Origin: an uncultured delta proteobacterium
GTDB lineage: Bacteria > Desulfobacterota > Desulfobacteria > Desulfobacterales > UBA11574
DNA length: 64,000 bases
Assembly: GCA_963706295.1 (NCBI GenBank)
Contig: CAVPLW010000022.1
Span: forward strand, 46,437 to 110,436
Direction of reading: 5' to 3'
Made by a program: the position numbers and the translations under genes. Under the pieces are notes generated by a model. The model saw nothing but the letters and a program-made list of their open reading frames with translations. It was not told the origin of the DNA and made no database searches. Position 1 is the first letter of the stretch, and every line of letters starts with the position of its first letter. Shown piece by piece: positions 10,806-45,268 of the stretch.

Positions 10806-11087
10806 TCAGGCTTCCTCGTGTTCAACCTTAATAGCTTTGGGCCACTTTTTACCGATTTCTTCCAGCTTTTCAGGTTCAGCGATATACCGTTCGAGGTAAC
10901 CGCATTCCTTGCAGACATAATTGTCAAGCGCAGCAATGGAAACAATGCTGATGGGGATGCTGTTGCTGCCGAAGGGACCGCTTTTCGGCAATACCTCAAC
11001 TCCCGCATAAATTTCTTCAGATCCACATTTGGGGCATTTTCCCTGTTTCAAGTTGACACCTCCTTGCCCGGATAAACCGGGAATCAA
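10806..11087 (-). CDS. Small zinc-ribbon protein (two CxxC pairs), function unknown
   Basis: CPKCGSEE ... CKECGY. A strong RBS (AAGGAGGTG) precedes an internal TTG at 11051, so the real start is probably 11051 (81 aa) rather than 11087. Confidence 0.65.
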   Translation of the reverse strand: MIPGLSGQGGVNLKQGKCPKCGSEEIYAGVEVLPKSGPFGSNSIPISIVSIAALDNYVCKECGYLERYIAEPEKLEEIGKKWPKAIKVEHEEA

Positions 11088-11129
11088 AATATCTTTATTA
11101 CTGCATTACGCAACGGTATTTGTCAAGCG

Positions 11130-11335
11130 TGTAACTATTGTCCATTCATAAATGGCCCTTTTTGTCCTGCTCGGCGTTCTCCGCGGGTTTCCGGCTGCGG
11201 CGTACAGACGTACGCCTTCCTGTCCCGCTTTGCGGGGACCGCAAACCCTTGTGCGGCCTTGATCAGAACAAAAACTGCTCATTTCTGAATTGGACACCCA
11301 TTGTGTTCATTTTTGATTCATGGATGGACACTAAC
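11130..11335. ncRNA. Candidate structured RNA of unknown class (GC-rich hairpin cluster in an AT-rich spacer)
   Basis: The ends pair (TGTCCATTCAT at 11139 with ATGGATGGACA near 11320). CCCTTTTTGTCCTGCTC pairs with GATCAGAACAAAAA. Internal hairpins are GCGTAC-AGAC-GTACGC, CCGC-TTT-GCGG and CCGCA...TGCGG. Neither ORF across it looks protein-like. Strand and class are unresolved. Confidence 0.3.
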
Positions 11336-11362
11336 TAAGGTTTATTAGCCATTTTTATATCA

Positions 11363-12055
11363 TCAAAATCGCAGACCCTTGATTAAAAAATATATCCCCA
11401 CACCGATCATCAGCATCGAACCGATTTTATAAATTATGTCTCTTGACTTCAACCAGCCCATTCCGGAAAGCCTGGCCACCATTAAAAGCGACGGAACGGT
11501 ACCGATGCCAAACACGGTCATGAGCCCCATTCCTGAAAGAACGGCTTTAAACGTGTTTTGAGTTTCCATGCCTAATCCGGCCGCTGCAATCAGAGCCGTA
11601 TACACCGGACCGCACGGCAGCAGGCCGAGCACCAAACCCAGTGGAAGAAAGGCTGCGGTGGATTGTATGCCGGACAATTTGCGAAAACTCCGTGAAATGA
11701 TTCCTTCGGGGCGGCAATAATTCCCGAAAATCTGTCCCAGTGGAATCCATCCGCTCATGCCCAGCCCCATAACGATGATGATGAGCCCTGCAAAGATCAT
11801 GGCGCCTTTTTGCAGGCTGCCGATGCCGGTGGTTATTCGAGTAAAAGCGCCGGTAGCGCCCATGACGCCGCCGAGAACAGCATAGGTGGAAATCCGACCC
11901 GCGTGGTACAACAGGTTCGGGGCCATAACCCCTTTCGTCTTTAAATTAAGAGAGAAAGAAACAACGATTGGGCCGCACATGCCGATACAATGCCCGAAAC
12001 CAACGACAAAACCGGTGGCTAAGAACGTAAGGTATAAGGCCTCAATAGATGACAT
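11363..12055 (-). CDS. DsbD_2 / TauE-like family integral membrane protein (COG2836-type)
   Basis: GFGHCIGMCGPIV motif in TM1 and PCGPVY later, with six or more TM helices. ATG 12055 has a GGAG RBS and overlaps the upstream gene by 14 nt. The track start at 12136 adds a non-membrane leader and is less likely. Confidence 0.8.
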   Translation of the reverse strand: MSSIEALYLTFLATGFVVGFGHCIGMCGPIVVSFSLNLKTKGVMAPNLLYHAGRISTYAVLGGVMGATGAFTRITTGIGSLQKGAMIFAGLIIIVMGLGMSGWIPLGQIFGNYCRPEGIISRSFRKLSGIQSTAAFLPLGLVLGLLPCGPVYTALIAAAGLGMETQNTFKAVLSGMGLMTVFGIGTVPSLLMVARLSGMGWLKSRDIIYKIGSMLMIGVGIYFLIKGLRF

Positions 12056-12981: not shown

Positions 12982-13116
12982 TCAATTAAGATTATAATAA
13001 AACTTAAGATTCTTTTTCATGAAAGATTCAGGTGATATTGCTTGATACTTGAAGGGTCCTTTGTTAAGGTGGCTCAAAAAAAATTTGGGTTTCAACACAT
13101 AATAAAACTCTGTGAG

Positions 13117-13929
13117 ATGTTGATGAAACGAAAAAAATGGCTTGATGAATATCGCCGACAGAATCGATTTGAGGACGACCGGCGCTCTAAAAAAACAGCC
13201 TATTTCGGTTACCGAAAAGTTTCCGTGGATGAAAAATCACAATGGGTTCTGCGACATTTCAATACCGTTGCCAAAAGATACGATCTGATGAACACGCTGT
13301 TGAGTTTTGGCATCCATCATCTGTGGAAGCGGACCGCCATCACGATCATGAACCTGAATCCCGGAGACCGGGTGCTGGATGTGTGCGGTGGTACCGGCGA
13401 TCTGGCGATTCTGGCTGCCGGACCTGTCGGCCGGTCCGGCCGGGTGATCATATACGACATCAACCGGGCCATGATCGAGGCCGGTGTGCGCAAGGTAACC
13501 CATTTGTCGTTAGAAGAGCGTATCCGGTTTGTTCAAGGAGATGCCGAACACGTGTCTTTTCCGGACGGATATTTCGATGCCGCCATGGTGGGTTTCGGAA
13601 TTCGCAATGTCACCCATATGGATCAGGGGTTTAAAGAGATATGCCGCGTGCTGAAACCCGGGGGGAAAATGATGTGCCTGGAGTTTTCAAAACCGACATC
13701 GCCGTTATTCCGGTGGTTGTACGATATTTACTCATTTCATGTGATGCCGGCGCTCGGTGAGGTTATCGCGGGATCAAGCAAGGCATACCTGCATCTAACC
13801 GAATCCATTCGAACTTTTGCATTGCCGAATGAGCTGACGGCTGTGTTGAAACAGGTGGGATTCTCAACAGTGACGGAACGTAAACTCACCAACGGTATTG
13901 CAATGATTCATCTGGGTGTCAAAGGATAA
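13117..13929 (+). CDS. ubiE: Demethylmenaquinone / ubiquinone C-methyltransferase (UbiE/MenG family)
   Basis: HFNTVAKRYDLMNTLLSFGIHHLWKR and VLDVCGGTGDLA are the canonical UbiE motifs. The track ORF starts at TTG 13042; ATG 13117 gives the normal length. Confidence 0.88.
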   Translation: MLMKRKKWLDEYRRQNRFEDDRRSKKTAYFGYRKVSVDEKSQWVLRHFNTVAKRYDLMNTLLSFGIHHLWKRTAITIMNLNPGDRVLDVCGGTGDLAILAAGPVGRSGRVIIYDINRAMIEAGVRKVTHLSLEERIRFVQGDAEHVSFPDGYFDAAMVGFGIRNVTHMDQGFKEICRVLKPGGKMMCLEFSKPTSPLFRWLYDIYSFHVMPALGEVIAGSSKAYLHLTESIRTFALPNELTAVLKQVGFSTVTERKLTNGIAMIHLGVKG

Positions 13930-15552: not shown

Positions 15553-17004
15553 ATGTCTTGGCTAATTTTGTATTTGGTTAGACCTTTAAAAACACCTTCA
15601 ATGAATTTGAAACATTTTTTTATGCTGCAAGATATTAAAAACCATACAAAAATCATTTTAGACAGCATTGCCGATGGTGTTTTTACCGTCGATTCTGATT
15701 GGAAGATTAGCTCTTTTAACCGGGCCGCCGAGAAAATCACCGGTATCAAAAAAGAGGAAGCAATCGGTCGATATTGCTGGGAGGTTTTTAAGGCCAGCAT
15801 ATGTGAAAAAGACTGTTCCATGAGAAGAACCATGGAAACGGGGCGTCCCATTATCAATCAACACATATTTATCGTTAATTCAAAAGGGGATCGGATTCCG
15901 GTTAGTATTTCAACCGCCATTTTAAAAGACAAAAACGGCAGCGTCATCGGGGGAGTGGAGACATTTCGTGATTTGAGTGTTGTGGAACAACTGCGTAAGG
16001 AATTGGCCAAGCAGCATACCTTTTATGACATTATTAGTAAAAACCGGGAAATGCAACGGCTGTTTGAAATGCTGGAACTGGTGTCCGGAAATGATACCAC
16101 TGTTCTTTTAGAAGGTGAAAGCGGCACGGGAAAAGAGCTTTTTGCAAGGGCCATTCACTCCCTCAGCCAACGAAAAAAGGAACCTATAATTACTGTAAAC
16201 TGCGGCGCTTTACCGGACACGCTCCTTGAATCCGAACTCTTCGGATACAAAGCGGGTGCCTTTACCGATGCAAAAAAGGATAAACCGGGAAGGTTTGCTC
16301 AGGCTGAGAATGGAACCCTTTTTTTGGATGAAATTGGAGACATCTCTCCAATGCTCCAGATGCGGCTCTTGCGTGTCCTTCAGGAGAAAGTGTATGAGCC
16401 TCTCGGCAGCACAACATCCGAAAAGGCAGATGTGCGCATCGTAGCAGCCACCAATAAAAACCTGGAGGGGTTGGTACAACAGGGATTGTTTCGAGAAGAT
16501 CTTTATTACCGGATCAATATTGTTAAACTTTTTTTGCCCCCTTTAAGGGAGCGCAAAGAAGATATTCCTCTGCTGGCGGAGCATTTTCTTCGAAGATTTA
16601 ACAGTCTGCGCGGGAAGGAAATTCAAGGACTATCGCCCAAAGCAATGAACATTCTGATGTCTTATGATTTCCCGGGTAATATAAGGGAGTTGGAAAATAT
16701 CGTTGAATATGCCACCGTGGTTTGTAAAAATCATTGGGTCGAAAAAGAACATCTGCCTGGAACTCTCCACCAGAAGATAGACATAAGGAAAATACCAGCC
16801 TCTGAAAAAATCATTAAAAGTGAGCCTTCATTAGAAGCCGTGGAAAAAGATATTATTTACAAGACGCTTAAGAAAAATAACTGGAATCGAAAGTTAACCG
16901 CCGTCCAAATGGGCATTCATCCGTCGACCCTCTGGCGTAAGATGAAACGTTTAAATATCATAGCGCCCAAACAGGATGGTCGGTCGAGGACCGGTGCTGT
17001 TTAA
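15553..17004 (+). CDS. Sigma-54-dependent transcriptional activator (PAS-AAA+-HTH) adjacent to the cooS operon
   Basis: GESGTGKELFARAIH, YKAGAFTDA and a C-terminal HTH. The PAS domain carries a three-Cys motif GRYCWEVFKASICEKDCSM. An alternative start is ATG 15601 (MNLKHFF...). Confidence 0.9.
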   Translation: MSWLILYLVRPLKTPSMNLKHFFMLQDIKNHTKIILDSIADGVFTVDSDWKISSFNRAAEKITGIKKEEAIGRYCWEVFKASICEKDCSMRRTMETGRPIINQHIFIVNSKGDRIPVSISTAILKDKNGSVIGGVETFRDLSVVEQLRKELAKQHTFYDIISKNREMQRLFEMLELVSGNDTTVLLEGESGTGKELFARAIHSLSQRKKEPIITVNCGALPDTLLESELFGYKAGAFTDAKKDKPGRFAQAENGTLFLDEIGDISPMLQMRLLRVLQEKVYEPLGSTTSEKADVRIVAATNKNLEGLVQQGLFREDLYYRINIVKLFLPPLRERKEDIPLLAEHFLRRFNSLRGKEIQGLSPKAMNILMSYDFPGNIRELENIVEYATVVCKNHWVEKEHLPGTLHQKIDIRKIPASEKIIKSEPSLEAVEKDIIYKTLKKNNWNRKLTAVQMGIHPSTLWRKMKRLNIIAPKQDGRSRTGAV

Positions 17005-17023
17005 TGTTGCATATTTGCATATT

Positions 17024-17065
17024 TGCATTACCATGTATTGCAAAGTTGCAATACATGGTAATGCA
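17024..17065 (+). promoter_or_regulatory. Perfect 20-bp-arm palindrome, candidate enhancer (UAS) for the downstream sigma-54 promoter; it could also act as a terminator hairpin for the activator gene
   Basis: TGCATTACCATGTATTGCAA-AG-TTGCAATACATGGTAATGCA, preceded by TTGCATATTTGCATATTTGCAT (three TTTGCAT units). It lies 85-125 bp upstream of the -24 element at 17149. Confidence 0.6.
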
Positions 17066-17148
17066 TCAAACCTTTTGAGAACAATTCTATTTACAATTTT
17101 CCCCAATAATCCAACATATTATTACTTATAGTCTATTTCCCCACAATC

Positions 17149-17163
17149 TGGCATTCAAATTGC
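17149..17163 (+). promoter_or_regulatory. Sigma-54 (-24/-12) promoter of the NifX-like/cooS operon
   Basis: TGGCAT-TCAAA-TTGC with the correct GG-N10-GC spacing, about 95 nt upstream of ATG 17256. Confidence 0.75.
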
Positions 17164-17255
17164 TTTTTAAACCAGTAGTGTAATTTTTATTGTCAGAATT
17201 TCTTATTTATACCCTTAATTTTCACAAACAATATCCGGTGAAAGGGAGTTTAGCC

Positions 17256-17729
17256 ATGAAAATAGCTGTTAGTTCCAGCGGCAAGGATCTTGACTCGTTG
17301 ATCGACCCGAGATTCGGCCGATGCCCATATTTTTTAATGGTCGAAACAGACGATATGAGTTTTGAGGTCTTTGATAATCAAAGCATGGCCTCAGGTGGTG
17401 GCGCCGGTATCCAGTCTGCCCAGTTTATAAGTTCCAAAGGAGCCAAAGCCGTCATCACCGGCAATTGCGGGCCCAATGCAGTGAAAACACTTGCTGCTGC
17501 GGGTATTGAAGTGTTTCTAGGAAATACAGGGATCGTAAGAGAAGTGCTTCAAAAGTTTAAAAATGGAGAGTTGACATCCACGAACTTGGCCAATGCACCT
17601 GAATACAGTGGTTTGGCCGGTAGAAAAAGTTTTAACCGCGGTATGGGGGCGGGAGGTCAAAGAGGTATGGGCCGTGGCAGGGGGATGGGGGGCCAAAGAG
17701 GTTTGGGCGCCGGCAGAAACAGGACATAA
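17256..17729 (+). CDS. NifB/NifX-like (dinitrogenase FeMo-cofactor-binding fold) protein with a Gly/Arg-rich C-terminal tail
   Basis: MKIAVSSSGKDLDSLIDPRFGRCPYFLMVE...ITGNCGPNA is typical of the NifX/NifB C-terminal domain family. The tail is GMGAGGQRGMGRGRGMGGQRGLGAGRNRT. ATG 17256 follows an AAAGGGAG RBS; the track start at 17190 is less likely. Confidence 0.8.
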   Translation: MKIAVSSSGKDLDSLIDPRFGRCPYFLMVETDDMSFEVFDNQSMASGGGAGIQSAQFISSKGAKAVITGNCGPNAVKTLAAAGIEVFLGNTGIVREVLQKFKNGELTSTNLANAPEYSGLAGRKSFNRGMGAGGQRGMGRGRGMGGQRGLGAGRNRT

Positions 17730-17814
17730 CGTCATGTTAAACGCCGATTCTATGGCGTAATCTTTTCTTGGAACGGGATGTAATAGTGTAGATTGATATA
17801 TCGGAGGCAATAAG

Positions 17815-18042
17815 ATGGGAGACAGATTAAACGATTTGTTTCTAAGATTTCAAATAAAAGGCTTTATGCCCATAGAAATTCCGGCACTGGTTAAAGATGT
17901 TCTGGATATCATGGACAGTCGAGAACTTTGCACGATAACAACCATTGACCAGGAACTTGAGGAGTTAGGATGGGGTATAAATATCATGGATAATACAACG
18001 TATGAACTGATCACATCGCTGGCAGAAGGTAATGTATCATGA
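17815..18042 (+). CDS. Hypothetical acidic 75-aa protein
   Basis: Its stop overlaps the next start (ATGA at 18039-18042), implying translational coupling within the cooS operon. I recognise no family. Confidence 0.6.
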   Translation: MGDRLNDLFLRFQIKGFMPIEIPALVKDVLDIMDSRELCTITTIDQELEELGWGINIMDNTTYELITSLAEGNVS

Positions 18043-18404
18043 GAATAGCAATTCCCATCTGGGAGGACAAGATTTCACCGGTTCTGGATACGGCATCTAA
18101 ATTGTTGATTATTGAAGACAAGACTCAAAAAGAATCCTCTCGTTTTAATGCCAATCTGCTTGAACAGGATATGTCTCAAAGATGTTCTTTTATTCGAAAA
18201 CTTGACCTGGATGTTTTGATTTGTGGTGCTGTATCACGCCAATTTTCAGAGATGCTTAAGGCATGCGGCATCAAAATTATATCCGGGATTTCCGGTCCGG
18301 CAGAAGATGTTTTAGACGCTTATCTACAGGGGGCCTTGCTTCATTCAGGGTTTTTCATGCCGGGGAGTAAAAGGAATCATCTTGATCAGGGTAACCAACC
18401 TTAG
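18039..18404 (+). CDS. NifB/NifX-like domain protein (second copy)
   Basis: MRIAIPIWEDKISPVLDTASKLLII...VLICGAVSRQFSEMLKACGIKIISG has the same fold signature as 17256-17729, without the RG tail. Confidence 0.75.
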   Translation: MRIAIPIWEDKISPVLDTASKLLIIEDKTQKESSRFNANLLEQDMSQRCSFIRKLDLDVLICGAVSRQFSEMLKACGIKIISGISGPAEDVLDAYLQGALLHSGFFMPGSKRNHLDQGNQP

Positions 18405-18449
18405 TTTTTAGAAACTCTGAAAAAACGACCACAATAAAAGGAGGAAAAG

Positions 18450-20492
18450 ATGGCGGAAGAAAAAGAAGTAAAGACGGCTAAACCGAAAAAACTTGCTGAT
18501 CCTAGTATGGTTTCCATTGATGCGGCAACCCAGGAAATGGTGGCGCGTGCACAGGAACTTGGTGTTGAAACGATTTTTGACCGGGCTGCAGTCATGAAAG
18601 CTTGTAACATTGGTGTTCAAGGGACTTGCTGTAAAAACTGTTCCATGGGTCCCTGCCGTCTCCCCCTTCCAAAGTCGGGCATTGAAGGTGAAGATACCAG
18701 AAAAGGTCTTTGTGGGGCCACGGCAAATACCATTGCAGCACGTAACTTTATCCGGATGATCGCAGGGGGCGCTGCAGCCCATTCAGATCACGGGCGCTGT
18801 GTGGCCGAAGTTTTTTTGTCTGCAGCCAGAAAGGAATCCGATTCTTACAAGATAAAGGATGTTGACAAGCTCTTACAGATAGCTCCCCACTTGGGTGTTG
18901 AAACCATGGTTGAAGTTGACGGCAAAAAGGTCGATCGGGACCTTGATGAGATCGCTCTCGAAGTGGCTGAAACGGCGTTAAATGAATGGGGCAAACCTGT
19001 GGGTGAACTTCTTTACATGAAGCGGGCACCTGAAGCCCTCTATGAGAAATGGAAGAAAAGCGGCGTTCTTCCCAGAAATATCGACAGGGAAATTGTTGAA
19101 ATCATGCACCGCACCCATATGGGTGTTGATCAGGATTTCAGAAATTTAATAAAGCAGGGCACCCGGGCAGCCCTGGCGGATGGTTGGGGCGGCTCCATGT
19201 TGGCCACCGATCTCCAGGACGTACTTTTCGGAACTCCCTATCCCGTCCAGTCTGAAGCCAATCTCGGTGTCATGAAGGAAGATCATGTAAATATTATTGT
19301 TCACGGCCATGAGCCGGTTCTGTCCGAGGTCATCGTGGCTGTTGCCCAGTCCCGGGAAATGGTCGACTATGCCAAGTCAAAAGGGGCCAAAGGGATTCAG
19401 TTGGGCGGTATCTGCTGTACGGCCAATGAAATATTGCAGCGCCATGGCGTACCCCCGGTAGGAACGTTTTTGCAGCAGGAGCTTGCCATAATTACCGGTG
19501 CCTGTGATGCCATGGTGGTTGATATCCAGTGTATCTTCCAGAATCTTGCTAACGTGGCCAAATGTTTCCACACCAAGCTGATTACCACTCACCCCATTGC
19601 CAAGATGGAGCAAGACAATGTCATTCACATCGAGTTCGACGAGCATCATGCTTTAGAAGATGCCCGGAGGATCGTGAAGATGGCCATTGACAACTTTGAG
19701 AACCGGGTTACGGAAGTGATGATTCCGAAACATAAAGGCGTTCAGGTTGCCGGATTCGGTGTTGAATCCATCGAATACCATCTGGGCGGAACCTTTCGCG
19801 GATCTTACTTTACCTTGAATGATAATATCATCAACGGCCGTATCCGGGGTGTTGCCGGTGTGGTCGGGTGCAACAATGCAAGGACAAAACATAATGAGGG
19901 CCATATTAAAATTGTCAAAGAACTGATCAAAAATGATGTCATTGTCCTAACCACCGGGTGTAACGGTATCGCATGTGCCATGGAAGGGTTGCTGACACCT
20001 GAAACTGCACAGGTTTTCTGTGGACCGGGACTGGCCGAAGTGTGTGAGACCGTGGGTATTCCCCCGGTGCTTCATCTGGGTTCCTGTGTTGACAACAGTC
20101 GGATTCTGCTGGCGGCAACCGAGGTTGTCAAGGCCGGCGGACTCGGAAACGACATCTGTGATCTGCCGGCGGCCGGCAGCGCGCCTGAATGGATGAGTGA
20201 AAAGGCCATAAGCATTGGCCATTATTTTGTTTCATCGGGCGTGTATACCGTCTTTGGCGTTACCCTGCCCACCTCCGGCGCTCCGGTTTTCCATGACTAT
20301 ATTTGCAAGGATCTGGAAAAGATTTATGGCGGTATGTGGGATATTGAAATTGATCCGATCAAACATGCCCAGAAGATGATCGCTCATATTGATAAAAAAC
20401 GTAAAGCTCTGGGCATCGATAGAACTCGGGATAGGGTTCTGATGGATATGGCGGATCGCCGTGAAATGGAGGCTGCATATCAAAAAGCTTAA
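18450..20492 (+). CDS. cooS: Anaerobic Ni-Fe-S carbon monoxide dehydrogenase catalytic subunit
   Basis: 680 aa. The N-terminal cluster motifs (GVQGTCCKNCSMGPCR) and the overall sequence are typical of CooS/hybrid-cluster-related Ni-CODH. Confidence 0.92.
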   Translation: MAEEKEVKTAKPKKLADPSMVSIDAATQEMVARAQELGVETIFDRAAVMKACNIGVQGTCCKNCSMGPCRLPLPKSGIEGEDTRKGLCGATANTIAARNFIRMIAGGAAAHSDHGRCVAEVFLSAARKESDSYKIKDVDKLLQIAPHLGVETMVEVDGKKVDRDLDEIALEVAETALNEWGKPVGELLYMKRAPEALYEKWKKSGVLPRNIDREIVEIMHRTHMGVDQDFRNLIKQGTRAALADGWGGSMLATDLQDVLFGTPYPVQSEANLGVMKEDHVNIIVHGHEPVLSEVIVAVAQSREMVDYAKSKGAKGIQLGGICCTANEILQRHGVPPVGTFLQQELAIITGACDAMVVDIQCIFQNLANVAKCFHTKLITTHPIAKMEQDNVIHIEFDEHHALEDARRIVKMAIDNFENRVTEVMIPKHKGVQVAGFGVESIEYHLGGTFRGSYFTLNDNIINGRIRGVAGVVGCNNARTKHNEGHIKIVKELIKNDVIVLTTGCNGIACAMEGLLTPETAQVFCGPGLAEVCETVGIPPVLHLGSCVDNSRILLAATEVVKAGGLGNDICDLPAAGSAPEWMSEKAISIGHYFVSSGVYTVFGVTLPTSGAPVFHDYICKDLEKIYGGMWDIEIDPIKHAQKMIAHIDKKRKALGIDRTRDRVLMDMADRREMEAAYQKA

Positions 20493-21709: not shown

Positions 21710-24013
21710 ATGCCCAACTATGATGAACAATTCCTCACGAGGGTTTTCGACAGTGTTACCGACCCCATGGCCATTTATGACCGTGAATTTAGAATTCTCA
21801 GGGTAAATAAGGCCCTGACGAATCTTTTTAAGATCTCTGCCCAACAAATTATAGGCAAAAATTGTTATGATGTATTTTATAGTCGCACCCAGATTTGCGA
21901 TGAGTGCCATGTTGATGATGTCTTTCATACCGGTGAGAAGCGGATGCTGGAAAAGTTATTTGCACTGCCAGGTGGAAGAAAACTCATTTTTGAAGTGCAC
22001 TCTTATCCAATTAAAGATGCAAAGGGAATTACCATACAAGCGATTGAGCATGCGAGGGACATCAGTCATCGTAAACACCTTGAAGACCAACTCATAACAT
22101 CCAAAGAATTCAACGAAAAGGTTATCAACAGCATAACAGACAGCCTTATAGTAATTGACCCTGTTGCTTACACCATCATCCAGGCCAACGAATCGTTTTA
22201 CTCCCGCGTTGGGAAAAAACATAATGAGACAATAGGCAAAAAATGCTACGAAATTATGCTCGGAAGACAAACATTCTGTGGGGAATCCGGCATCCAGTGT
22301 TCGGTAAAAGAAACCGTACGCTCAAAGTCTCCCGCCATCTCTGACAAAATTTATCCCGATACCGACGGAAAAGACAGGGTGCTTCAAATTGCCACCTATC
22401 CGATCTTTGATGATCAGGGGGAGATCAGCTCGATTATCCGGTTGGAACGAGACGTCACCGAAAAACGAAAAATGGCGGATGCCCTGGCCTTTCGTTCAAA
22501 GGAACTGCAAAGAGCCCAGAATCAACTGGAGCGGTTGTTTAAAATCTCGCGGCAAGTGAACGCGAAAAACGCTTTATCAGAGATCGTCGATTACGCCCAT
22601 GAAGTTGCCCGGGAAATCTTTCCCAACTCTGTCCCTTTGATTTTTCTATTGGATGCCGGAGGCCGGGGTTTTCTGAGTTTGGAAGGCTGCAACCCCACTG
22701 TACTAGAGCCACTTCTGCGAGCGCAACAGGAAATTGAACGATCCGGATTGATTCCGGATTTTATCCAATATCTGCAAAGCACCAGGGAACCTCGTGTTGT
22801 CGGTTCAACGTATAACAATGACATTCCTGATTTTTTAAGGATTATTTCAAAAGATTGTCCCAATTGGTTCGGCTTTCCGATTTCCGCCCCCCAACAATGC
22901 ATTGGATATTTCGTACTGAAATCGCCGATCTCTCATGAATTCTCCCATGAAGATATCCACTTTTTTCTGACGCTGTTCAATCAAATCGCCGGCCATGTTC
23001 GTTATCTGGTTATCCATGAAACCGAAATCAATCACCTCCGGCAAAGGGTTGCCGAACGCACTTCTCATGGCAAAATCATTGGCCAGAGTGACGAGATGCA
23101 AAAGGTCTATAAACTGATCGATCTGGTTTCTGCTTCCGACGCGACCGTATTAATTACCGGCGAAAACGGCACCGGAAAGGAGGTGGTCGCTCAGGCCATC
23201 CACCGCCAGAGTCATCGAAAAGAAGGCGCCTTTGTGGTTGCCAACTGTTCGGCCTATTCGCCGGCCCTGCTGGAAAGCGAACTCTTTGGACACGAGAAAG
23301 GCGCCTTTACAGGCGCCATCAAGAGAAAAATCGGTCGCGTTGAGCGGGCTCAGGGAGGCATACTGTTTTTAGATGAAATCGGTGACATTGCCCCGGCTAC
23401 CCAGGTCCTTTTGCTCAGATTTCTCCAGGACCACTGTTTTGAAAGGGTCGGCGGGGAGGAAACCATGGAGGCCGATGTACGGGTTCTGGCGGCAACCAAC
23501 CGGGATCTGTACAAGGAAGTGGAAGCAGGCCGATTCAGAAACGATCTATATTATCGGCTGAATGTCATTACCCTCCATCTGCCGCCCTTGCGCGACCGCA
23601 AAGAAGACATTCCGCTGCTCTGCAACCATTTTCTTGAAAAATACAGTTTGAAAGAGAACAAGTACGTCAAATCTTTTTCCTCCGGTGCCATGCAAATTTT
23701 GATGGATCACGAATGGCCCGGAAATGTACGCCAGCTGGAAAACGCCGTCAGTCATGCGGTTATCCTTACTCAGGGCCAGTTTATCGAGAGGAAGCATCTG
23801 CCCCAGTTCCTCAAACAATCCGTTCCCGAACCCTCCACCACCTGCCTTGATGAAAATGAGCGACGGCTGATTCTCAATGTGCTTCAAGAGTCCGACTGGA
23901 ACAAACATGAGGCTGCCCGGCGTCTTAAAATTAGCCGCAGCACCCTTTACAGCAAAATCCGTCGCCATTGTATAGAAAAAGGGACGTTTAGCGTATCAGA
24001 TATGGACAGATAG
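21710..24013 (+). CDS. Sigma-54-dependent transcriptional activator (PAS-PAS-GAF-AAA+-Fis HTH)
   Basis: 767 aa. GENGTGKEVVAQAIH, EKGAFTGA and HTH AARRLKISRSTLYSKIRR. Two PAS domains each carry a Cys motif (GKNCYDVFYSRTQICDECH; GKKCYEIMLGRQTFCGESGIQC), followed by a GAF-like segment. Confidence 0.92.
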   Translation: MPNYDEQFLTRVFDSVTDPMAIYDREFRILRVNKALTNLFKISAQQIIGKNCYDVFYSRTQICDECHVDDVFHTGEKRMLEKLFALPGGRKLIFEVHSYPIKDAKGITIQAIEHARDISHRKHLEDQLITSKEFNEKVINSITDSLIVIDPVAYTIIQANESFYSRVGKKHNETIGKKCYEIMLGRQTFCGESGIQCSVKETVRSKSPAISDKIYPDTDGKDRVLQIATYPIFDDQGEISSIIRLERDVTEKRKMADALAFRSKELQRAQNQLERLFKISRQVNAKNALSEIVDYAHEVAREIFPNSVPLIFLLDAGGRGFLSLEGCNPTVLEPLLRAQQEIERSGLIPDFIQYLQSTREPRVVGSTYNNDIPDFLRIISKDCPNWFGFPISAPQQCIGYFVLKSPISHEFSHEDIHFFLTLFNQIAGHVRYLVIHETEINHLRQRVAERTSHGKIIGQSDEMQKVYKLIDLVSASDATVLITGENGTGKEVVAQAIHRQSHRKEGAFVVANCSAYSPALLESELFGHEKGAFTGAIKRKIGRVERAQGGILFLDEIGDIAPATQVLLLRFLQDHCFERVGGEETMEADVRVLAATNRDLYKEVEAGRFRNDLYYRLNVITLHLPPLRDRKEDIPLLCNHFLEKYSLKENKYVKSFSSGAMQILMDHEWPGNVRQLENAVSHAVILTQGQFIERKHLPQFLKQSVPEPSTTCLDENERRLILNVLQESDWNKHEAARRLKISRSTLYSKIRRHCIEKGTFSVSDMDR

Positions 24014-24097
24014 GGTCCTTTTCTGTACAGCCCTTAAATCCTTCACCCATAAGTCACCTAAAGGTTTTAAAGAAAAGTTAGGGTCCGATTCCGTACA
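24011..24097 (+). promoter_or_regulatory. Two 19-bp direct repeats (TAGGGTCCnnTTCnGTACA), candidate activator-binding sites
   Basis: TAGGGTCCTTTTCTGTACA (24011-24029) and TAGGGTCCGATTCCGTACA (24079-24097) are identical at 16 of 19 positions and lie 130-215 bp upstream of the candidate -24/-12 element at 24229. Confidence 0.45.
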
Positions 24098-24228
24098 CTC
24101 ATTTAGGTTTTTCGTTAAGCAGCACCGGATATCCTTCACAACATCTCATTTTTATAAAACGTATAACTAACTGAAAAACCATTAGAATCAGACAAAGAGC
24201 CTTGAATTTTCATCGGTTTTTTCATGCC

Positions 24229-24243
24229 TGGCAGGATTCTTGT
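24229..24243 (+). promoter_or_regulatory. Candidate sigma-54 promoter for the CoA-transferase module (non-canonical -12)
   Basis: TGGCAG-GATTC-TTGT has a correct -24 GG and correct spacing, but the -12 reads GT instead of GC. It is the only -24/-12-like site I found between the activator gene and 24803. It would give a leader of about 550 nt. Confidence 0.4.
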
Positions 24244-24802
24244 AATACACTTCATTAAAGTACCAAAAACGTTTTGGCGTTTTACAGTTTATTTTTGTCC
24301 GATGAAAACATGACCGACCATGCTCTTAATCCCAAAACTCAATTTGATCAGATACATATAAGTCATCCGTCTTTTAAGACGACCGTCTAAAAAGCTTCAC
24401 AGTTGGTACACCATTGAAATAAAGGAGTGATGCTTTACCAAGTGCCTTTATATGAAGCGGTGTTGTTATTGGCCATGACCGTTAATGGGTTTTCGATTAT
24501 TCGTTTACCCGGCCGTTTTCAACATACTGAAATCGAAGAGGGAGTTGAACCGCCTGTATTATTTTTTCTCTAAAAGAGAGAGGCTGGAAAGCCGTTGAGC
24601 CTTGACGGTTTGGTTGGCTCTACTCGGACAACGACCGCTAACATTACAAGAAAGGAGGTGAGAACAACAAAAAGAGACGTCTCCTCCCAACGAACGCTTA
24701 TCTTAAAAAAATTAGTTCTGAGTAGTTAATCGTGTTCGTTGCCATGTTGAAGAGGGGTTTGGATCTAGTCTAAAGCAAAACCAATTGATGGGAGGTTAAA
24801 AT

Positions 24803-26290
24803 ATGGCAGAAATAAGAGATGTGGAAATAAACAGCAGGGAGGACACTCTTCCTCTGATGAGCCCTGAGGTTAGGCCCTGGCCTGTGACGCCGCCGCCGCC
24901 GCGGGAAGAAGTATCCAAAGTGTACGCCAAGCGGAATGCGGCCAAGTTCGGTGAGTGGTGTGAGGACAACCTCAGGTTCGAGTACAGCTTCGGCAAGCCC
25001 GAGGCCCTTCGGGGTCTGAAGGTGCTATGTATGGGGTTGTACAGGATGGGCAACAAGTTTGGCTCATCGTTGTTGGCCGAAGCCGGGGCCGAGGTTATTA
25101 ACATCGAGCCGCCCGAAGGAGATCCTTTGAGAAAACTTACGCCCTTTGGCAGAGAAGAGTTGATGCTCGAGGACAGTGAAACCGGCGAAAAGTGCGGCAT
25201 GGATTTCCTTCACGAGATGAGAAACAAGTACTCCATTACGCTGAATATCGAGACCGACGAAGGCAAGGAGATATACAAAAAGCTGGCTGCTCATGCGGAC
25301 GTACTCATCGAGGAGTATCCGCCGGGCTATATGGATGAGCGGGGACTGGGTTACCGGCAACTGTCCGAGATCAACCCCAAGCTTATTTACTGCTGGATCG
25401 GTGTACGGGGATCATGGGGACCTTACAAGGACACACTTTCCAAATTCGGCCAGTGGACGCTGGAGCCTTTCGGCGGCTGCGCCAATTCTTTTGTACACAA
25501 CACCGGATTTCCCCAGGACCAGCTTCCCAGGGGCAGAGGCGGCGATCCTACCCGTTCCGGTGTTTGGTTTGCCGACTATGTTGCCGGTGAGCAGGGAGCC
25601 TGCAGTATTCTGGCGGCCATTTACTGGCGAAATAAGTTCAGCGGCGAGGGCCAGTTCATCGAGGTTACGGGCGCTGAAACCCAAATGGACATTCTGGATT
25701 TTGACATCGGCTGGTACGGCTTCAACAAGAGTATCAAAGCCAGGACCGGCGGCTGGGACCCCAATTTGAACCAGTACGAGTGGAACCCCTGCAAGGACGG
25801 CTATATGATGATCGGCGGTCAGACCGACCGGCTCTGGTATCGCATCGGCCAGTGCATTGAGCGGGATGATGTTCAGTTCGGCCGGTTGATTCACGAAGAT
25901 CCGTTCCTCAAAGAGATGGGTGCCAGGAACGCACTCCAGGCCCTGATCAAGACCTACACCGTGACCACCCGCTGGCTGCGGGACATGAACCGGGTCGAAG
26001 CTGAAACAAAGCTGCTGGAGTATGAAATTGCGGCCGGGCCGGTTCTGTTCATCGACGAGGTCAGTGAATTCCCCCACTTTGTGTACCGCCCCTGGGTGTA
26101 CACCATAGACAGCGATCAGTACGGGACCGTGATGTATTCGACGTCACCGAACTCATTCGCGTACAGAACGCCGCACCGGGTCAAGTGGATCGGAAGGCCC
26201 TTAGGAAAGGACAACTTTCTCAAGTACTTGCAGTGGCTCGGTCTCGGCCAGAATCAAGTCAGAGAACTCAAGAGTAAGGGGGTGATATAA
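24803..26290 (+). CDS. Family III (CaiB/BaiF-type) CoA-transferase-like protein, large form (495 aa)
   Basis: LKVLCMG...[24 protein letters not shown] is the N-terminal family III signature, [11 protein letters not shown] is the candidate catalytic-Asp region, and the C-terminus ...[17 protein letters not shown] is typical. An N-terminal extension of about 70 aa is present. The RBS is GGGAGG. Confidence 0.85.
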
Positions 26291-27705
26291 TGGCAAAAGA
26301 TTTGAGAGAAACAAGGATAGAGGACCTGCCAGGCCCCAAGAGCAAGGAAGAGCTCGAAGAAATGAAGATGCCTTATGAAGAGTACTGCCGGACGGTCTTT
26401 GATCCGGGCAAGGAACATGAAAAACCCGAGCCTCTAAATGGCATCCGGTGGTTGAGCACCACCATGTATATCTTCACGCCCCATTCCGTCTCCAACCTGG
26501 CTGAGCTGGGGGCTGAAGTCATCAAGGTCGAGATGCCGAGGATGGGCGATCCCATGCGGCATTGTGCTCCGTTCAACGAGACCTATCTGTATCCGCTGCA
26601 CGACAGCCGGCCCATGACCGGTACCGGCCTGGGCTATCTGGGCGCCAATCCCAGCGAGTTCCACATTAGCATGGATTATCATCTGGACGAAATGAAGGAG
26701 GCCTTTTACCGGCTGGTAAAGATGTCCGACGGACTCACCGAATGCTATCGTCCCGGGACCTTTGACAAGTGGAAACAGAGTTATCTGTACCTTCAGGAGA
26801 TGAACCCCAGGTTCATTTACGTATGGGGCGGCGGTTTCGGCTACGGGCCCAAGGTTTTCGGCGGATCCTACGACATTCTGGGACAGGCCCATGCCGGACT
26901 GGCTTCCGTTACCGGTATGCATGACTTTATGGGTGGACACTGCGCCAAGCACTCCAACTGGTGCATTGACTGGTACTCCGGAACCCAGATCACCTTCGGG
27001 ATCCTGGCGGCCATCCACTGGCGCGAAACCACCGGTCTTGGGACCATGATCGAGTTTTCCCAGGTGCAGGCGGCGACCCGATGTCTGGGTTATGCCGCAC
27101 CCATGTACGGCCGGTTCGGTATTGTGCGCCAGCGCTGGGGGAACTGGGATACCCAGCTCTGTGCACACGGTATCATTCTGTGCGGTAAGTCCGACTTTCC
27201 GGATGTTACCAATCCGCAGGACAAGCATGATGCCCGCTATGTCATGGTCTCTGCCTTTCAGGATGAGGATTTTAAAGAACTGTGCGCCATCACCAAAATG
27301 AAAGATCTTTACGACAAATACAAGGCCCATAAGGACAGGGTCGAGGGTGAATCTCAGGTGGAGATTTACGCTGCCCTGGAAAAATGGGCTGAGGACAAAT
27401 CACGGTCGAAAGTGGTAAAAATCTTGCAGGATGCCGGTCTGTTGGCCGAACCGGTGATGAACGACCGGGAGGTCTACGAATGCGAGCACTACAGGGAGAG
27501 GGGTACGCTCCGCTGGCTTGATGATCCCATCTTCGGTGACGTGCTGACCCAGAGCGGGTACTCCTCGGGATTGATGGCCAAGTCACCCAGGAGGCAGAAC
27601 TGGATCTGGCGGCCGGTGGGTGCCGATAATATAAAGATCTACCATGAGTTGCTCGGTTATCCGACTGCCACCGTTAAGGAGTGGTACGATAAGAGCTGGA
27701 TATAA
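26290..27705 (+). CDS. Family III CoA-transferase-like protein, second diverged paralogue (471 aa)
   Basis: [39 protein letters not shown] and the C-terminus [18 protein letters not shown]. The start overlaps the upstream stop (TAATG). Confidence 0.85.
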
Positions 27706-27720
27706 AAGGAGGAGGGTGCC

Positions 27721-28203
27721 GTGTGTGATATTATCTGGTGTAAGAAAGAAATTAATGGAAAAAAGTGTAACACCGTTAACTACCTTGATCCTTACTGTTT
27801 CTGGAACTGGGAGGGAAAGGTAAACTGCGCTGAATGCAAAACGGTGTATTACATCCACATGATTCAGGGCTTTATGTACAGGGGCCCTGAGGAAGTTGAC
27901 GAAAAACCGGACACCAGTCCGCTCTATGCGGATAAGCCCCTGGAGGGTTACAAGAACTATTTGCCGGGCATCGAAGGCCGGACCAGGCCGTATCAATGCC
28001 TGCCCAGAGATATCTACCTGGGGACGGCCGACATGGTCAAGTTCAGCGCCAGGGGCAGGCCGGTCAGGGGCTGGCGTCCGCAGCCGCCGTCCGCCGGCAT
28101 TGCCGGAAGCTTTGGCTTTGAATGGGATATTCAGAAACTGACTCCTGAAGTATGGGAGGAGTATCAGGAGAAACTGAAAAAAGGTGAAGTAGGCGAATGG
28201 TAA
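27721..28203 (+). CDS. Hypothetical 160-aa Cys/Trp-rich protein (probable N-terminal zinc-binding module)
   Basis: GTG start after AAGGAGGAGGG. Six Cys in the first 40 aa (C2, C7, C16, C26, C36-x2-C39). I recognise no family. Confidence 0.7.
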   Translation: MCDIIWCKKEINGKKCNTVNYLDPYCFWNWEGKVNCAECKTVYYIHMIQGFMYRGPEEVDEKPDTSPLYADKPLEGYKNYLPGIEGRTRPYQCLPRDIYLGTADMVKFSARGRPVRGWRPQPPSAGIAGSFGFEWDIQKLTPEVWEEYQEKLKKGEVGEW

Positions 28204-28221
28204 AAAAGAAAGGAGTTTTAC

Positions 28222-28452
28222 ATGGCACAGTTAACACCTGAAGAGTTTCTGGACACTGTTCTGGTTCCGGAAAAACAAAGTGATCATATATGCTGGCAGT
28301 GCAGGAACTTGAAGCCGGTTCTCAAAGGCTCCAAGTTTCCGCCCGCAGATATCATCGGCTGGTGTATGAAAATCTACTGGCCCGACTACTGGTGTGTCGC
28401 GGATTTCAATGTGGTTAAAAAGTGCTTTGCCTTTACGGAGAAGAAAAAATAA
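28222..28452 (+). CDS. Hypothetical 76-aa Cys/Trp-rich protein
   Basis: ATG 7 nt after AAAGGAG. Cys at positions 24, 27 (CWQC), 48, 58 and 68. I recognise no family. Confidence 0.65.
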   Translation: MAQLTPEEFLDTVLVPEKQSDHICWQCRNLKPVLKGSKFPPADIIGWCMKIYWPDYWCVADFNVVKKCFAFTEKKK

Positions 28453-28630
28453 GGCGAAAAATCTGAGTGATCCATTGAAAGAAGTGGAGGCTGGAAAAAC
28501 CGTAAAAAGATCCGAAGTATAAGTACGTAAAGCACTCCGACTCTGTTTGGCGGGAGTAAGGGCATACACAGCGTCGAGATATAACTGCTCCAACGCGCTT
28601 ATACTTCGGTTTAAAAAAAGGAGGGATAGC

Positions 28631-29053
28631 ATGCCTGAGAAATGTCGTGTGGGTGTCTGCGGATACGACCCCATGCTCGTGAAAGGATACTTGGCGGCAA
28701 ATATTAGGGCCTTGTGGTGGCATATATCCGACGAGCTGTACGAGGAGTTTGACATGAAACCGGGAATGAAGGTTTCCGGCAAACTGTTGAAGGTCTATAA
28801 CGGAAAAGATGGAAAAGAATCCGCAGCTCCCAATGAACCCTTTAAGTGGGAAACATCCAAGGAGTCGGGTCTTGTCGTGGTGCTGCCGTCTGATGTCATC
28901 GCCAAATACAAGCTCACCGAGTGTCACTTCATTGAGATGATCATTGATACGATTGACGGCAAAGACGTCTACCCCGGCAAAGAGAGAATGAGCGAAAAAT
29001 TCTGGCCCGAGGAGATGATGAAACTGGACTTTGTCCTTCAATATATCGAGTAG
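28631..29053 (+). CDS. Hypothetical 140-aa protein (last gene of the CoA-transferase module)
   Basis: ATG 28631 is preceded by AAAAAGGAGGGATAGC. The track start at 28547 would run through a 12-bp-stem hairpin and has no RBS. A GLVVVLPSDVIAKYKL segment is reminiscent of AbrB/SpoVT-type swapped-hairpin domains (weak). Confidence 0.65.
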   Translation: MPEKCRVGVCGYDPMLVKGYLAANIRALWWHISDELYEEFDMKPGMKVSGKLLKVYNGKDGKESAAPNEPFKWETSKESGLVVVLPSDVIAKYKLTECHFIEMIIDTIDGKDVYPGKERMSEKFWPEEMMKLDFVLQYIE

Positions 29054-29434: not shown

Positions 29435-29857
29435 TTGAATGGTTACACAAAACAGATTCCGATCCTCCTACTGATCGCAAATGAGAAAATCCGGAGTTAT
29501 GTTTTAGAGCTATGCAAGAGAAACAACTTCCATCCTCTGATCGGTGCTGATCTGGAAGAACTCATAAAAAGTTTTAAAACGAGGCACAGCAGCATCGTTA
29601 TGTTGGACTACGAAGTGGTCAAATCTTATGGTGCGAGGATCTATTCAAGAATTAATGTTGCCTGCCCCGGTTGTAATGCCATCCTGCTTTGCGATCAAGA
29701 CCATCGCGACCTTATCAAAGAGGCCGTGGAACATGGTGTTTACGCGTGCATTCTGGCACCTTATGAGGAATGGGAGGTGCTGACCATGATCAGAAACATT
29801 GACGCCAAAAAGAAATTGCGGGGACGAAAGAAACTCGACAAAGATCAAGCGTTATAA
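29435..29857 (+). CDS. CheY-like receiver-domain protein with a degenerate acidic pocket (stand-alone)
   Basis: IPILLLIANEK...SIVMLDYEV...ILLCDQ...AVEHGVYACILAP follows the (beta-alpha)5 receiver pattern, but the N-terminal DD pair is replaced by NE. TTG start with a weak RBS. Confidence 0.5.
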   Translation: MNGYTKQIPILLLIANEKIRSYVLELCKRNNFHPLIGADLEELIKSFKTRHSSIVMLDYEVVKSYGARIYSRINVACPGCNAILLCDQDHRDLIKEAVEHGVYACILAPYEEWEVLTMIRNIDAKKKLRGRKKLDKDQAL

Positions 29858-29892: not shown

Positions 29893-30843
29893 TTATCGCT
29901 TCAGCAATTTGACAACGACGATCAAAAGTAAGGCTAAAGGATAGGTGCTGGCCATGTTGAAAAGCACCATGGCATACTGTGATTTCTTTGTTTGATAGAG
30001 AATCCAGGCGGGCAGGACAAAAAGGAAAAGTCCTGTTGCCACGGCGGCAACCAGAAACGGAAATTCAAAAGGGATCGGAGAGCTGTAAAACACAACGGTG
30101 GAAAGAATTAGCGATGCAGTCAGAGATCCCAGAATAATTGCATTGGCCGAGTTTGTGCCCAGTTGAACCGGAATGGTCTTGGCGTTAAGGCGCTGATCCT
30201 CCTCGATGTCGGACCAGTCATTGGGAACGTTCTGGCCGCCGATTTCCCACAAAAACAACCACAGAAACAGCATGGACAGAAATATCGGTGAAGGGCTCGG
30301 ATCCACGGCAAACACACCGGCAATGGCTCCGGCCGTCTTAACGCCGCCACTGACCAGGGTTCTGAGATGGGTGACTTTGAGTAACAGACAATACACCGTC
30401 TCCAGAGAACAACCGATGACAAAAATTAAAATGCAGACCGGATTTAAGTAGTAAGCGCCCCATATCGCCACAATTGACCAGCCCACCGTCCAGAGCAACC
30501 CTTCTTTAAAACTCAGATATCCCTGGGCCATGGGATGTCGCACCATGGCGGCATCCAGATCACATTCGATATCGAAATTTCCACAGAGCTTCAACTTTTC
30601 TTTATCCACACGATAATCGATGACATCGTTAAGGGCATAAACCGCCGTATACCCCGCAAATGTGGTAATCAGTCCGATTAAAATCACTTCAAAAGAGGGA
30701 AAACGGCCGAGCCAGAGCAGCGCACCCAATGCGGGTGTGGCCATGTCCAGCAATCCGTGAGGCGTTCTGGAGAGCGCCCAGAAAAGTTTTATTTTAGTAA
30801 GACCGGTATATGTATGAATCGGTTGTGTCATCTTCATTTCCAA
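29893..30843 (-). CDS. UbiA-family aromatic prenyltransferase
   Basis: 316 aa, about 8-9 TM helices, with the Asp-rich motif NDVIDYRVD (NDxxDxxxD). Confidence 0.85.
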   Translation of the reverse strand: MEMKMTQPIHTYTGLTKIKLFWALSRTPHGLLDMATPALGALLWLGRFPSFEVILIGLITTFAGYTAVYALNDVIDYRVDKEKLKLCGNFDIECDLDAAMVRHPMAQGYLSFKEGLLWTVGWSIVAIWGAYYLNPVCILIFVIGCSLETVYCLLLKVTHLRTLVSGGVKTAGAIAGVFAVDPSPSPIFLSMLFLWLFLWEIGGQNVPNDWSDIEEDQRLNAKTIPVQLGTNSANAIILGSLTASLILSTVVFYSSPIPFEFPFLVAAVATGLFLFVLPAWILYQTKKSQYAMVLFNMASTYPLALLLIVVVKLLKR

Positions 30844-45219: not shown

Positions 45220-45268
45220 TGAAAATTAACATGCATTCAACAAAAGGGTATTGGAGAAAAGGACAGTC

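Follow-up and report, generated by a model that had tools for sequence, protein, structure and literature searches.

What would a pair of divergent family III CoA-transferases need with three small, cysteine-rich proteins that resemble nothing described? The question is raised by five genes at positions 24803–29053 of a 64,000-nt stretch of DNA from an uncultured delta proteobacterium of the Desulfobacterales (assembly GCA_963706295.1, contig CAVPLW010000022.1, positions 46,437 to 110,436 of the forward strand). We refer to this whole stretch as the window, give all positions in its coordinates unless another locus is named, and use A to E as working names for the five open reading frames (ORFs) in gene order. 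A first-pass annotation, made from the sequence alone, had described them as an acquired set of five genes for the activation of an organic acid. They turn out to be a reduced form of a larger module with a strictly conserved gene order. At least 218 species-level genomes of bacteria and archaea contain this module, of which we found no published description. To the reading that we favor we give about an even chance of being right: the module would encode an inducible, heteromeric complex of family III CoA-transferases and metal-binding accessory subunits, activating an organic acid.

Gene Content and Synteny of the Module

All five genes are real, and they occupy the positions on the plus strand that the first-pass annotation had given them. 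A (24803–26290, 495 aa) and B (26290–27705, 471 aa), the two family III CoA-transferase paralogs, share the TAATG stop/start overlap noted earlier. Three orphan proteins follow: C (27721–28203, 160 aa, GTG start) begins after a gap of 15 nt, D (28222–28452, 76 aa) after another 18 nt, and E (28631–29053, 140 aa, with a longer TTG-started reading from 28547) beyond a non-coding spacer at 28453–28630. A ribosome-binding site (RBS) had been claimed for every gene, and the purine-rich stretches GGGAGG, AAGGGGGTG, GGAGGAGGG, AAGGAG, and GGAGGG do precede the five starts. The overlap and the tight gaps suggest co-translation, and no plus-strand terminator was found inside the operon. Two long antisense ORFs that had also been pointed out (25412–26077 and 26434–27330) are present in the ORF list; they are an expected by-product, since the coding sequence is rich in G+C at third codon positions (GC3).

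One genome per GTDB species was scanned for homologs of C, which gave the 218 genomes, and 80 loci were fetched. The synteny counts reported here cover about 90 related loci (L numbers), with denominators limited to loci whose contig reaches far enough. D and E were found beside C without exception (87/87 and 80/80, respectively), and the two large subunits nearly so, A in 67 of 68 loci and B in 75 of 77. The label of a “five-gene module” did not survive this comparison, as the canonical unit is A-B-C-D-X-E plus a metallo-beta-lactamase (MBL)/TPR hydrolase: X, a further small protein encoded between D and E, accompanies C in 78 of 86 loci, and the MBL-TPR gene in 60 of 70. The order is fixed (regulator, a gap of 0.5–0.8 kb, A, B, C, D, X, E, MBL-TPR), and so are the approximate sizes of the products, at ~495 aa for A, ~470 for B, 155–165 for C, 74–82 for D, ~94–107 for X, and 139–147 for E. 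Thermoplasmata loci have A-B in the opposite orientation to C-D-X-E-MBL, still adjacent to it. It had been proposed to look for co-occurrence of the genes across Desulfobacterota; the set co-occurs there and far beyond, with carriers in Desulfobacterales, Syntrophobacterales, Terriglobia, Methylomirabilis, Anaerolineales, Binatia, Margulisiibacteriota, Thermoplasmata, and Hydrothermarchaeota.

X is a small, helical, acidic protein with no counterpart in Pfam, NCBIfam, or PADLOC. The MBL gene product (380–425 aa) consists of a metallo-beta-lactamase domain fused to TPR repeats, is weakly similar to glyoxalase II and LACTB2, and retains the HxHxDH motif in 63 of 67 homologs from related loci. 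None of A, B, C, D, E, X, the MBL protein, or the receiver-like protein described below matched the anti-phage defense models of PADLOC.

Because X and the MBL gene are absent from it, the window copy is a reduced variant; a tblastn search for remnants of either gene in the window found none. Its nearest relatives, the Desulfobacterales metagenome-assembled genomes (MAGs) L004–L012 at 92–96% identity, are likewise without the MBL gene. X is intact in L004 (1460–1741) and L009 (10726–10992), and a spacer of 166–178 nt takes its position in the window, L005–L008, and L012. One Desulfobacterales clade is in the process of losing X, and both X and the MBL hydrolase are dispensable in the lineage of the window. 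A further observation on X is that it appears truncated or frameshifted in L011 (4414–4530).

Within some single MAGs the module is present twice or three times, in divergent copies (L027/L042/L043, L049/L054, and L036/L050, also L051/L057 and L039/L058). In such MAGs, MBL-less copies with a receiver-like gene, as in the window, occur beside copies with the MBL gene in which the receiver was not detected. This mixture suggests functional subtypes, and the presence of two or three copies per MAG would fit a substrate-diversified family of catabolic enzymes.

Outside the clade of the window, identity in the bacterial loci is 76–85% for C and 71–87% for B. These two proteins rank highest in conservation, followed by A and D, and then by E, MBL, and X. 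That C is as conserved as B, the probable catalytic subunit, fits an integral subunit. Full-text searches of the literature found no description of this cluster (PMC13416013, PMC11887813); genes BzS1_26180–26210 of PMC13416013 form a different arrangement, of two FldA-like transferases, a dehydratase, and a ligase.

The Two CoA-Transferase Paralogs

Assignment of A and B to the family III CoA-transferases, first made by eye, is borne out by matches to PF02515 (CaiB/BaiF) far above the cut-off of 23.3 bits (A, 227.7 bits, E 3e-67; B, 207.1 bits, E 6e-61). Both had been described as 60–90 aa longer than usual members and as only distantly related to each other. Their mutual identity is indeed 27%, and the PF02515 match opens at residue 69 in A and at residue 49 in B, so that the extra length is chiefly N-terminal, in extensions of 68 aa (A) and 48 aa (B). 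The closest PDB match of A is 4ed9 (E 5e-29). Scores against the NCBIfam equivalogs for Frc and for mesaconate, glutarate, oxalate, and carnitine CoA-transferases did not exceed 128 bits, where cut-offs are 413–750 (for example, 125 bits vs. 700).

The N-terminal signature (…GA.VIK/N.E.P..GD..R) is seen in both proteins, and its Arg is invariant in both families (59/59 homologs of B and 51/51 of A); we take the GDxxR segment to be CoA-binding. The segments that had been proposed to hold the catalytic Asp align with the part of solved family III enzymes that holds the catalytic Asp. In B this residue, Asp227, was found in 59 of 59 homologs, and the SYD..GQA..G segment that stands before the Asp in the solved enzymes is kept. 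In A the equivalent Asp258 was found in 47 of 51 homologs, with Ser or Glu in the other four, and the pre-Asp segment is divergent from that of the solved enzymes. Since the Asp of B is always kept behind an intact pre-Asp segment, and that of A has been lost in four homologs and follows a divergent one, B is probably the catalytic subunit and A a CoA-binding partner. We judge a heteromeric enzyme of A and B, as the first-pass annotation had suggested, to be likely.

Both subunits also contain Cys and His residues that are all but fixed. Residues C131, H232, C330, and C351 of A are conserved in at least 96% of homologs, and C33, H65, H91, H131, H293, C332, and H400 of B are invariant. Conservation of Cys and His at 96–100% is not known as a feature of family III CoA-transferases.

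The Three Small Proteins

Earlier inspection could place none of the three small proteins, and neither could we: C, D, and E had no match in Pfam, NCBIfam, or PADLOC, and the Pfam search at E ≤ 0.01 included the DUF35 OB-fold and rubredoxin-like zinc-ribbon families. The Cys positions that had been listed for C (2, 7, 16, 26, 36, and 39) and for D (24, 27, 48, 58, and 68) are correct. All three proteins contain Cys/His patterns of the kind that ligate metals, and the description of the set as zinc-ribbon-like accessory subunits can be kept for at least one of them, C, with its four conserved Cys in the pattern CX2-8C...CX2C.

In an alignment of C homologs, the second Cys pair (C36 and C39) is invariant and the first (C7 and C16) at least 90% conserved; in shorter homologs the first pair is a CxxC. 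The confident AlphaFold2 (AF2) model of C (pLDDT 88.6, pTM 0.61) is extended, with beta-strands flanking the Cys pairs, and a Foldseek search of this model against the PDB gave no match (best E 1.5). The structure predicted for C is thereby a Cys4 zinc ribbon at the N terminus, followed by an extended tail that is conserved, the metal presumably being zinc. A homolog search with C returned 119 clusters at 37–97% identity (full-length ones mostly 64–83%), and every cluster that bears a name is called “hypothetical protein”. Their sources include Deltaproteobacteria, Syntrophobacteraceae, Desulfosoma, one Thermoplasmata archaeon, and one Hydrothermarchaeota archaeon.

The motif H22-x-C24-x2-C27...C48 is invariant in D, which has two further Cys at C58 and C68; a sequence search of the PDB with D returned noise only (E 0.31). 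Invariant residues of E are C5 and C10, which form an N-terminal Cys pair, and H31. The AF2 model of E is compact and confident (pLDDT 92.0, pTM 0.85), and its best Foldseek match is 2glw (PhS018), with a probability of 0.97, E 0.12, 14% identity, and TM scores of 0.41 (query) and 0.58 (target). The two superpose with an rmsd of 2.9 Å over 80 columns, which correspond to the core barrel, and the model is thus suggestive of a small beta-barrel of the cradle-loop type. A homolog search with E gave 535 clusters, “hypothetical” in all cases among the matches listed. A profile search against 1.84 billion representatives returned just 21 at 50% identity and no distant relatives or informative fusions; because it finds the E family alone, we regard E as an orphan family confined to the module. 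The one 233-aa profile match, P0313, looks like an assembly chimera.

Regulator and Upstream Region

The PAS-PAS-GAF sigma-54 activator that the first-pass annotation had placed next to the module is encoded on the plus strand at 21710–24013, and it is a conserved neighbor upstream of A, found in 28 of the 49 assessable loci. Its Pfam domains are Sigma54_activat (1e-68), AAA_lid_14, PAS_9/PAS_4 in two stretches, a weak GAF, and a C-terminal HTH_8 of the Fis type. It is accompanied by a degenerate receiver-like gene (29435–29857, plus strand, 140 aa), whose homologs lie near C in 30 of 67 loci. The product matches Response_reg at 3.5e-5, below the Pfam cut-off; the acidic pair after beta-1 is gone (AN), as is the conserved Lys (AP), and the protein is 45% identical to its L001 equivalent. 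Activator and receiver co-vary (both in 21 loci, neither in 20, the activator only in 5, and the receiver only in 0), which makes the receiver gene a regulatory part of the unit.

The region between the regulator and A spans 790 nt in the window (24013–24802), and we aligned this interval of 0.65–0.8 kb for the window and six close relatives. Two direct repeats, GGGTCC-N-TTC(C/T)GTACA (GGGTCC-N-TTCCGTACA), at 24013–24029 and 24081–24097 on the plus strand are conserved in the six relatives and are candidate binding sites for the activator (upstream activator sequences, UAS). An element of the -24/-12 type, TGGCAGGATTCTTGT, lies at 24229–24243 on the same strand, about 570 nt upstream of A, and is spanned by CTGGCAGGATTCTTGTAAT (24228–24246), which is conserved in close relatives. 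More widely, TGGCA-N6-TTG(T/A) occurs 300–570 nt upstream of A in 18 of 57 loci; its background frequency is 0.07 per kb per strand. Because the -12 dinucleotide is GT or GA and not GC, sigma-54 dependence is probable, not proven. No sigma-70-type promoter was found upstream of A.

Closer to A, a conserved block with GGAGG…CCTCC (~24648–24700) stands ~110–150 nt upstream of the real RBS at 24791, for which it could provide a decoy Shine-Dalgarno/anti-Shine-Dalgarno pair. An Rfam search over the whole window found one tRNA only, leaving the long leader without a riboswitch, and the folding of positions 24630–24815 was no better than that of shuffles (z = 0.28). An insertion of ~140 nt upstream of A (~24480–24620) is common to the window and L010 only.

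Other regulators are found beside the module elsewhere, a PadR protein in Terriglobia (L017) and an IclR protein in Methylomirabilis (L033), and a LivK-type ABC transporter adjoins A in one locus. Variable regulators combined with constant enzyme genes are reminiscent of transferable catabolic modules.

Codon Composition and Origin

A raised GC content of the module had been taken as a sign of acquisition. The excess itself held up in a window-wide check of GC3, at 0.70 for both A and B, 0.62 for C, 0.57 for D, and 0.63 for E. The other 45 window genes have a mean of 0.498 ± 0.048 and a maximum of 0.581, so that A and B lie more than 4 standard deviations above. If these values marked a recent foreign island, the occurrence of the module in unrelated phyla and in archaea at 54–82% identity would fit, as would the transposases that flank the Thermoplasmata copy. 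However, the excess follows the host: GC3 of A/B is 0.65/0.64 over a flank mean of 0.505 in L006 (locus GC 46%), 0.71/0.70 over 0.63 in L001 (53%), and 0.81/0.86 over 0.68 in L017 (60%), which indicates no single donor. In addition, relatives at 92–96% identity keep the upstream order of FeMo-co-like proteins, a prismane/CODH-family protein, GNAT, and activator, and the regulator and receiver genes have a host-typical GC3 of 0.51. With a similar kind of excess over the flanks in hosts of such different composition, and with upstream synteny common to the nearest relatives, GC content is no argument for acquisition, and we consider a recent island improbable. Since the GC3 bias scales with the host, codon selection, for high expression when the operon is induced, is the best explanation. 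Horizontal spread would be older, as implied by the 54–82% identity between phyla and domains and the transposases around the archaeal copy.

Proposed Function and Alternative Readings

We infer that the subunits form a physical complex. In it, the acyl-aspartyl anhydride and CoA-thioester intermediates known from family III would arise on Asp227 of B, and A would be the divergent, interlocking partner of B, still binding CoA, with an Asp of its own that is dispensable in some lineages. C, D, and E would be stoichiometric metal-binding accessory subunits, holding the dimer together or helping to form the substrate pocket. Succinyl- or acetyl-CoA, as a common donor, would supply the CoA in the presumed reaction; the acceptor would be a small organic acid encountered only occasionally by the cell, and its thioester would enter pathways whose genes lie elsewhere. 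In Desulfobacterota, a small molecule may act through the PAS-PAS-GAF sigma-54 activator and the degenerate receiver to switch on expression from the distant -24/-12 promoter; in other phyla, PadR or IclR regulators would serve instead. For the TPR-tethered MBL hydrolase we can only speculate that its role is to edit thioesters or to release the acid from a precursor (an ester, a lactone, or a thioester).

Several neighboring genes lend weak support to an acid as the substrate. An aldehyde:ferredoxin oxidoreductase (AFOR) and an Fe-alcohol dehydrogenase (ADH) lie beside the module in Desulfacinum and Desulfosoma, where they would supply free acids, and an aldehyde dehydrogenase lies near a Thermoplasmata copy; the PadR/IclR regulators and the LivK-type transporter point in the same direction. 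Taken with the sigma-54 activator, the promoter-like element, and the raised GC3, the AFOR/ADH pair, the transporter, and the alternative regulators appear to fit an inducible catabolic role.

Other observations weigh against a plain acid-activating transferase under sigma-54 control. Clustering of all ORFs of 89 loci showed no consistently linked downstream pathway genes; U32 peptidase-like proteins, acyl-CoA ligases, 4HBT thioesterases, GATase_4/amidoligase, AFOR/ADH, and ClpB-like AAA proteins recur only within sublineages. Where solved family III enzymes have GNAHPxxxPY, the aligned segment is divergent in both A and B. The -12 element is non-canonical, TTGT or TTGA in place of TTGC, and a recognizable element is present in just the 18 of 57 loci. 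Described family III transferases are not known to require accessory subunits, and four conserved orphan proteins with invariant Cys/His hint at chemistry past plain CoA transfer. Nor is an active, thioester-hydrolase-like MBL protein beside the transferase obviously needed for acid activation.

The module might instead be a metalloenzyme built on a CoA-transferase scaffold, which would carry out a further step on the CoA-bound intermediate as a lyase, isomerase, racemase, or (de)carboxylase, with the Cys/His-rich subunits as its catalytic metal site. This would account for four orphan subunits that are as strongly conserved as the catalytic one, for the numerous invariant or near-invariant Cys/His in A, B, C, D, and E, for the replacement of the Asp of A by Ser or Glu in some lineages, and for substrate-side motifs that depart from those of canonical enzymes; the module is also self-contained with varying flanks, like one-step activating enzymes. 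Possible precedents for added chemistry are DddD, a tandem family III CoA-transferase/lyase, and alpha-methylacyl-CoA racemase, which belongs to the same superfamily. Yet no cofactor-binding or second catalytic domain was detected with Pfam or NCBIfam, the Cys pattern of C (CX2-8C...CX2C) is of the structural zinc ribbon type, and an extended model (pTM 0.61) with no fold match is what one would expect of a clamp and not of a catalytic domain. On balance we find such an enzyme, the main alternative, unlikely. We likewise think it unlikely that the module represents an unrecognized class of multi-subunit metalloenzymes, in which a CoA-transferase heterodimer and three or four orphan metal-binding subunits would perform chemistry past CoA transfer. 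In that unlikely case, the substrate would be one beyond ordinary CoA-transferases and ligases, and anaerobes, both bacterial and archaeal, would have passed the module to one another in soils, peat, sediments, and hot springs.

The small proteins might also have no part in the enzyme, with C, D, and E being separate small regulators or chaperones that share the operon, and with the E barrel and the C zinc ribbon perhaps binding DNA. The best structural match of E is a cradle-loop barrel (2glw, probability 0.97), a fold class that includes DNA binders of the AbrB/MazE type, and X and the MBL gene are dispensable in one clade. This we regard as very unlikely, however: D (87/87) and E (80/80) keep a fixed order over two domains of life, an identity between phyla of 54–85% seems to us too high for a regulator, other dedicated regulators are already attached to the module (the sigma-54 activator, PadR, and IclR), and E is without relatives outside the module among 1.84 billion proteins. 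A CoA-transferase complex with metal-binding accessory subunits remains the reading that we prefer.

Significance

What is new here is the combination of a CoA-transferase pair and conserved orphan subunits, which is widespread and uncharacterized. Four proteins of no described family rank among the most conserved genes of their neighborhoods. Hosts include Syntrophobacteraceae, Desulfobacterales, Terriglobia, Methylomirabilis, Binatia, and Thermoplasmata, and they are abundant in the habitats from which they come, namely wetlands, peat, aquifers, digesters, marine sediments, and hot springs. The complex would be part of an unrecognized route of carbon turnover in anoxic habitats if the acid that it activates is a specific natural one; if its chemistry exceeds transfer, it would be a new enzyme architecture. 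Cultured carriers are available in Desulfacinum infernum DSM 9756, D. hydrothermale DSM 13146, and Desulfosoma caldarium, and the dedicated sensor-regulator of the operon could be used for inducer screening.

Genomic Neighborhood

Upstream of the module, the window encodes a second sigma-54 activator with a PAS domain (15553–17004), followed by two proteins like dinitrogenase FeMo-cofactor-binding proteins (17190–17729 and 18039–18404) and a 680-aa prismane/CODH-family protein (18450–20492); the whole block of 15553–20492 is syntenic in L005 and L006. Genes of the quinone-biosynthesis type are found at 9022–10710 (ABC1/UbiB-like kinase), 13042–13929 (UbiE methyltransferase), and 29893–30843 (UbiA prenyltransferase), and no link of such genes to the module was seen in other loci. 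Farther downstream, an aconitase is split over two consecutive ORFs (45251–46435 and 46488–48017), the first with the N-terminal part of the Aconitase domain and the second with the remainder and Aconitase_C. The split could reflect a frameshift, a pseudogene, or a genuine two-piece enzyme.

At related loci, a second conserved block follows the MBL gene in about seven cases (e.g., L073 13870–19582 and L076 19193–20305), with unannotated proteins of 413, 106, 152, 267, 152, and 433 aa around a ClpB-like AAA_2 ATPase. GATase_4 and Amidoligase_2 genes occur a few kb downstream of the module in about 11–13 Syntrophobacteraceae loci (e.g., L031 14805–15554 and L040 15537–16529), and genes of the U32 peptidase family together with an acyl-CoA ligase lie near the module in both Syntrophobacteraceae (L001) and Thermoplasmata (L002). 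The Hydrothermarchaeota locus L084 has an extra unannotated gene of 226 aa between D and X (10850–11530), a second MBL-TPR copy and a separate TPR protein upstream, and corrinoid methyltransferase genes nearby (URO-D, B12-binding, RACo).

Comparison With Known Systems

Among single-subunit relatives, Frc/YfdW, CaiB, and succinyl-CoA:mesaconate CoA-transferase (4ed9) share with A and B the domain, the aligned Asp, and the GDxxR segment. Enzymes of the Frc type are homodimeric, whereas A and B appear to be heteromeric and have extra subunits, a divergent GNAHPxxxPY segment, and, in A, a divergent pre-Asp segment. DddD, the dimethylsulfoniopropionate CoA-transferase/lyase, has two tandem CaiB-like domains in one fused polypeptide and no small subunits. 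It resembles the module in its paired, divergent family III units and possibly in chemistry past plain transfer.

For the small subunits, DUF35 zinc-ribbon proteins offer a parallel. They are obligatory, non-catalytic partners, as with BbsA in the BbsAB thiolase and in the archaeal thiolase/HMG-CoA synthase complex. Like C, they place a small Cys4 zinc ribbon beside an enzyme that acts on CoA thioesters; the family of the partner enzyme differs, and C is set apart by having neither a Pfam nor a PDB fold match. E in turn can be compared with PhS018 (2glw), of the RIFT and swapped-hairpin barrels, to which it adds an N-terminal segment with the Cys pair and helices, a resemblance from which no functional inference follows. 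Phenyllactate dehydratase, FldABC, is a case of a family III transferase within a larger complex, its partners being HGD-D subunits and an activator. The domains of these partners (2-hydroxyacyl-CoA dehydratase) were not found in C, D, X, or E with Pfam or NCBIfam. FldABC is mentioned in PMC13416013.

BbsEF (9fn0) and SptAB likewise consist of two adjacent, distantly related PF02515 paralogs that are presumed to form a heteromer. Closeness to BbsE and BbsF is at the superfamily level only, as A and B match the 9fn0 chains at E values of 1e-17 to 3e-21, no better than they match Frc or 4ed9. The first-pass annotation had also raised a match to a described bbs or spt pathway cluster; no such match was seen, as the annotated parts of the window and of related loci contain none of the defining neighbor genes, for bss/bbs beta-oxidation or UbiD/UbiX decarboxylases. 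The two-subunit BbsEF/SptAB type is nonetheless the nearest analogy, to which, unlike BbsEF and SptAB themselves, A and B add N-terminal extensions and the companions C, D, X, E, and the MBL/TPR hydrolase.

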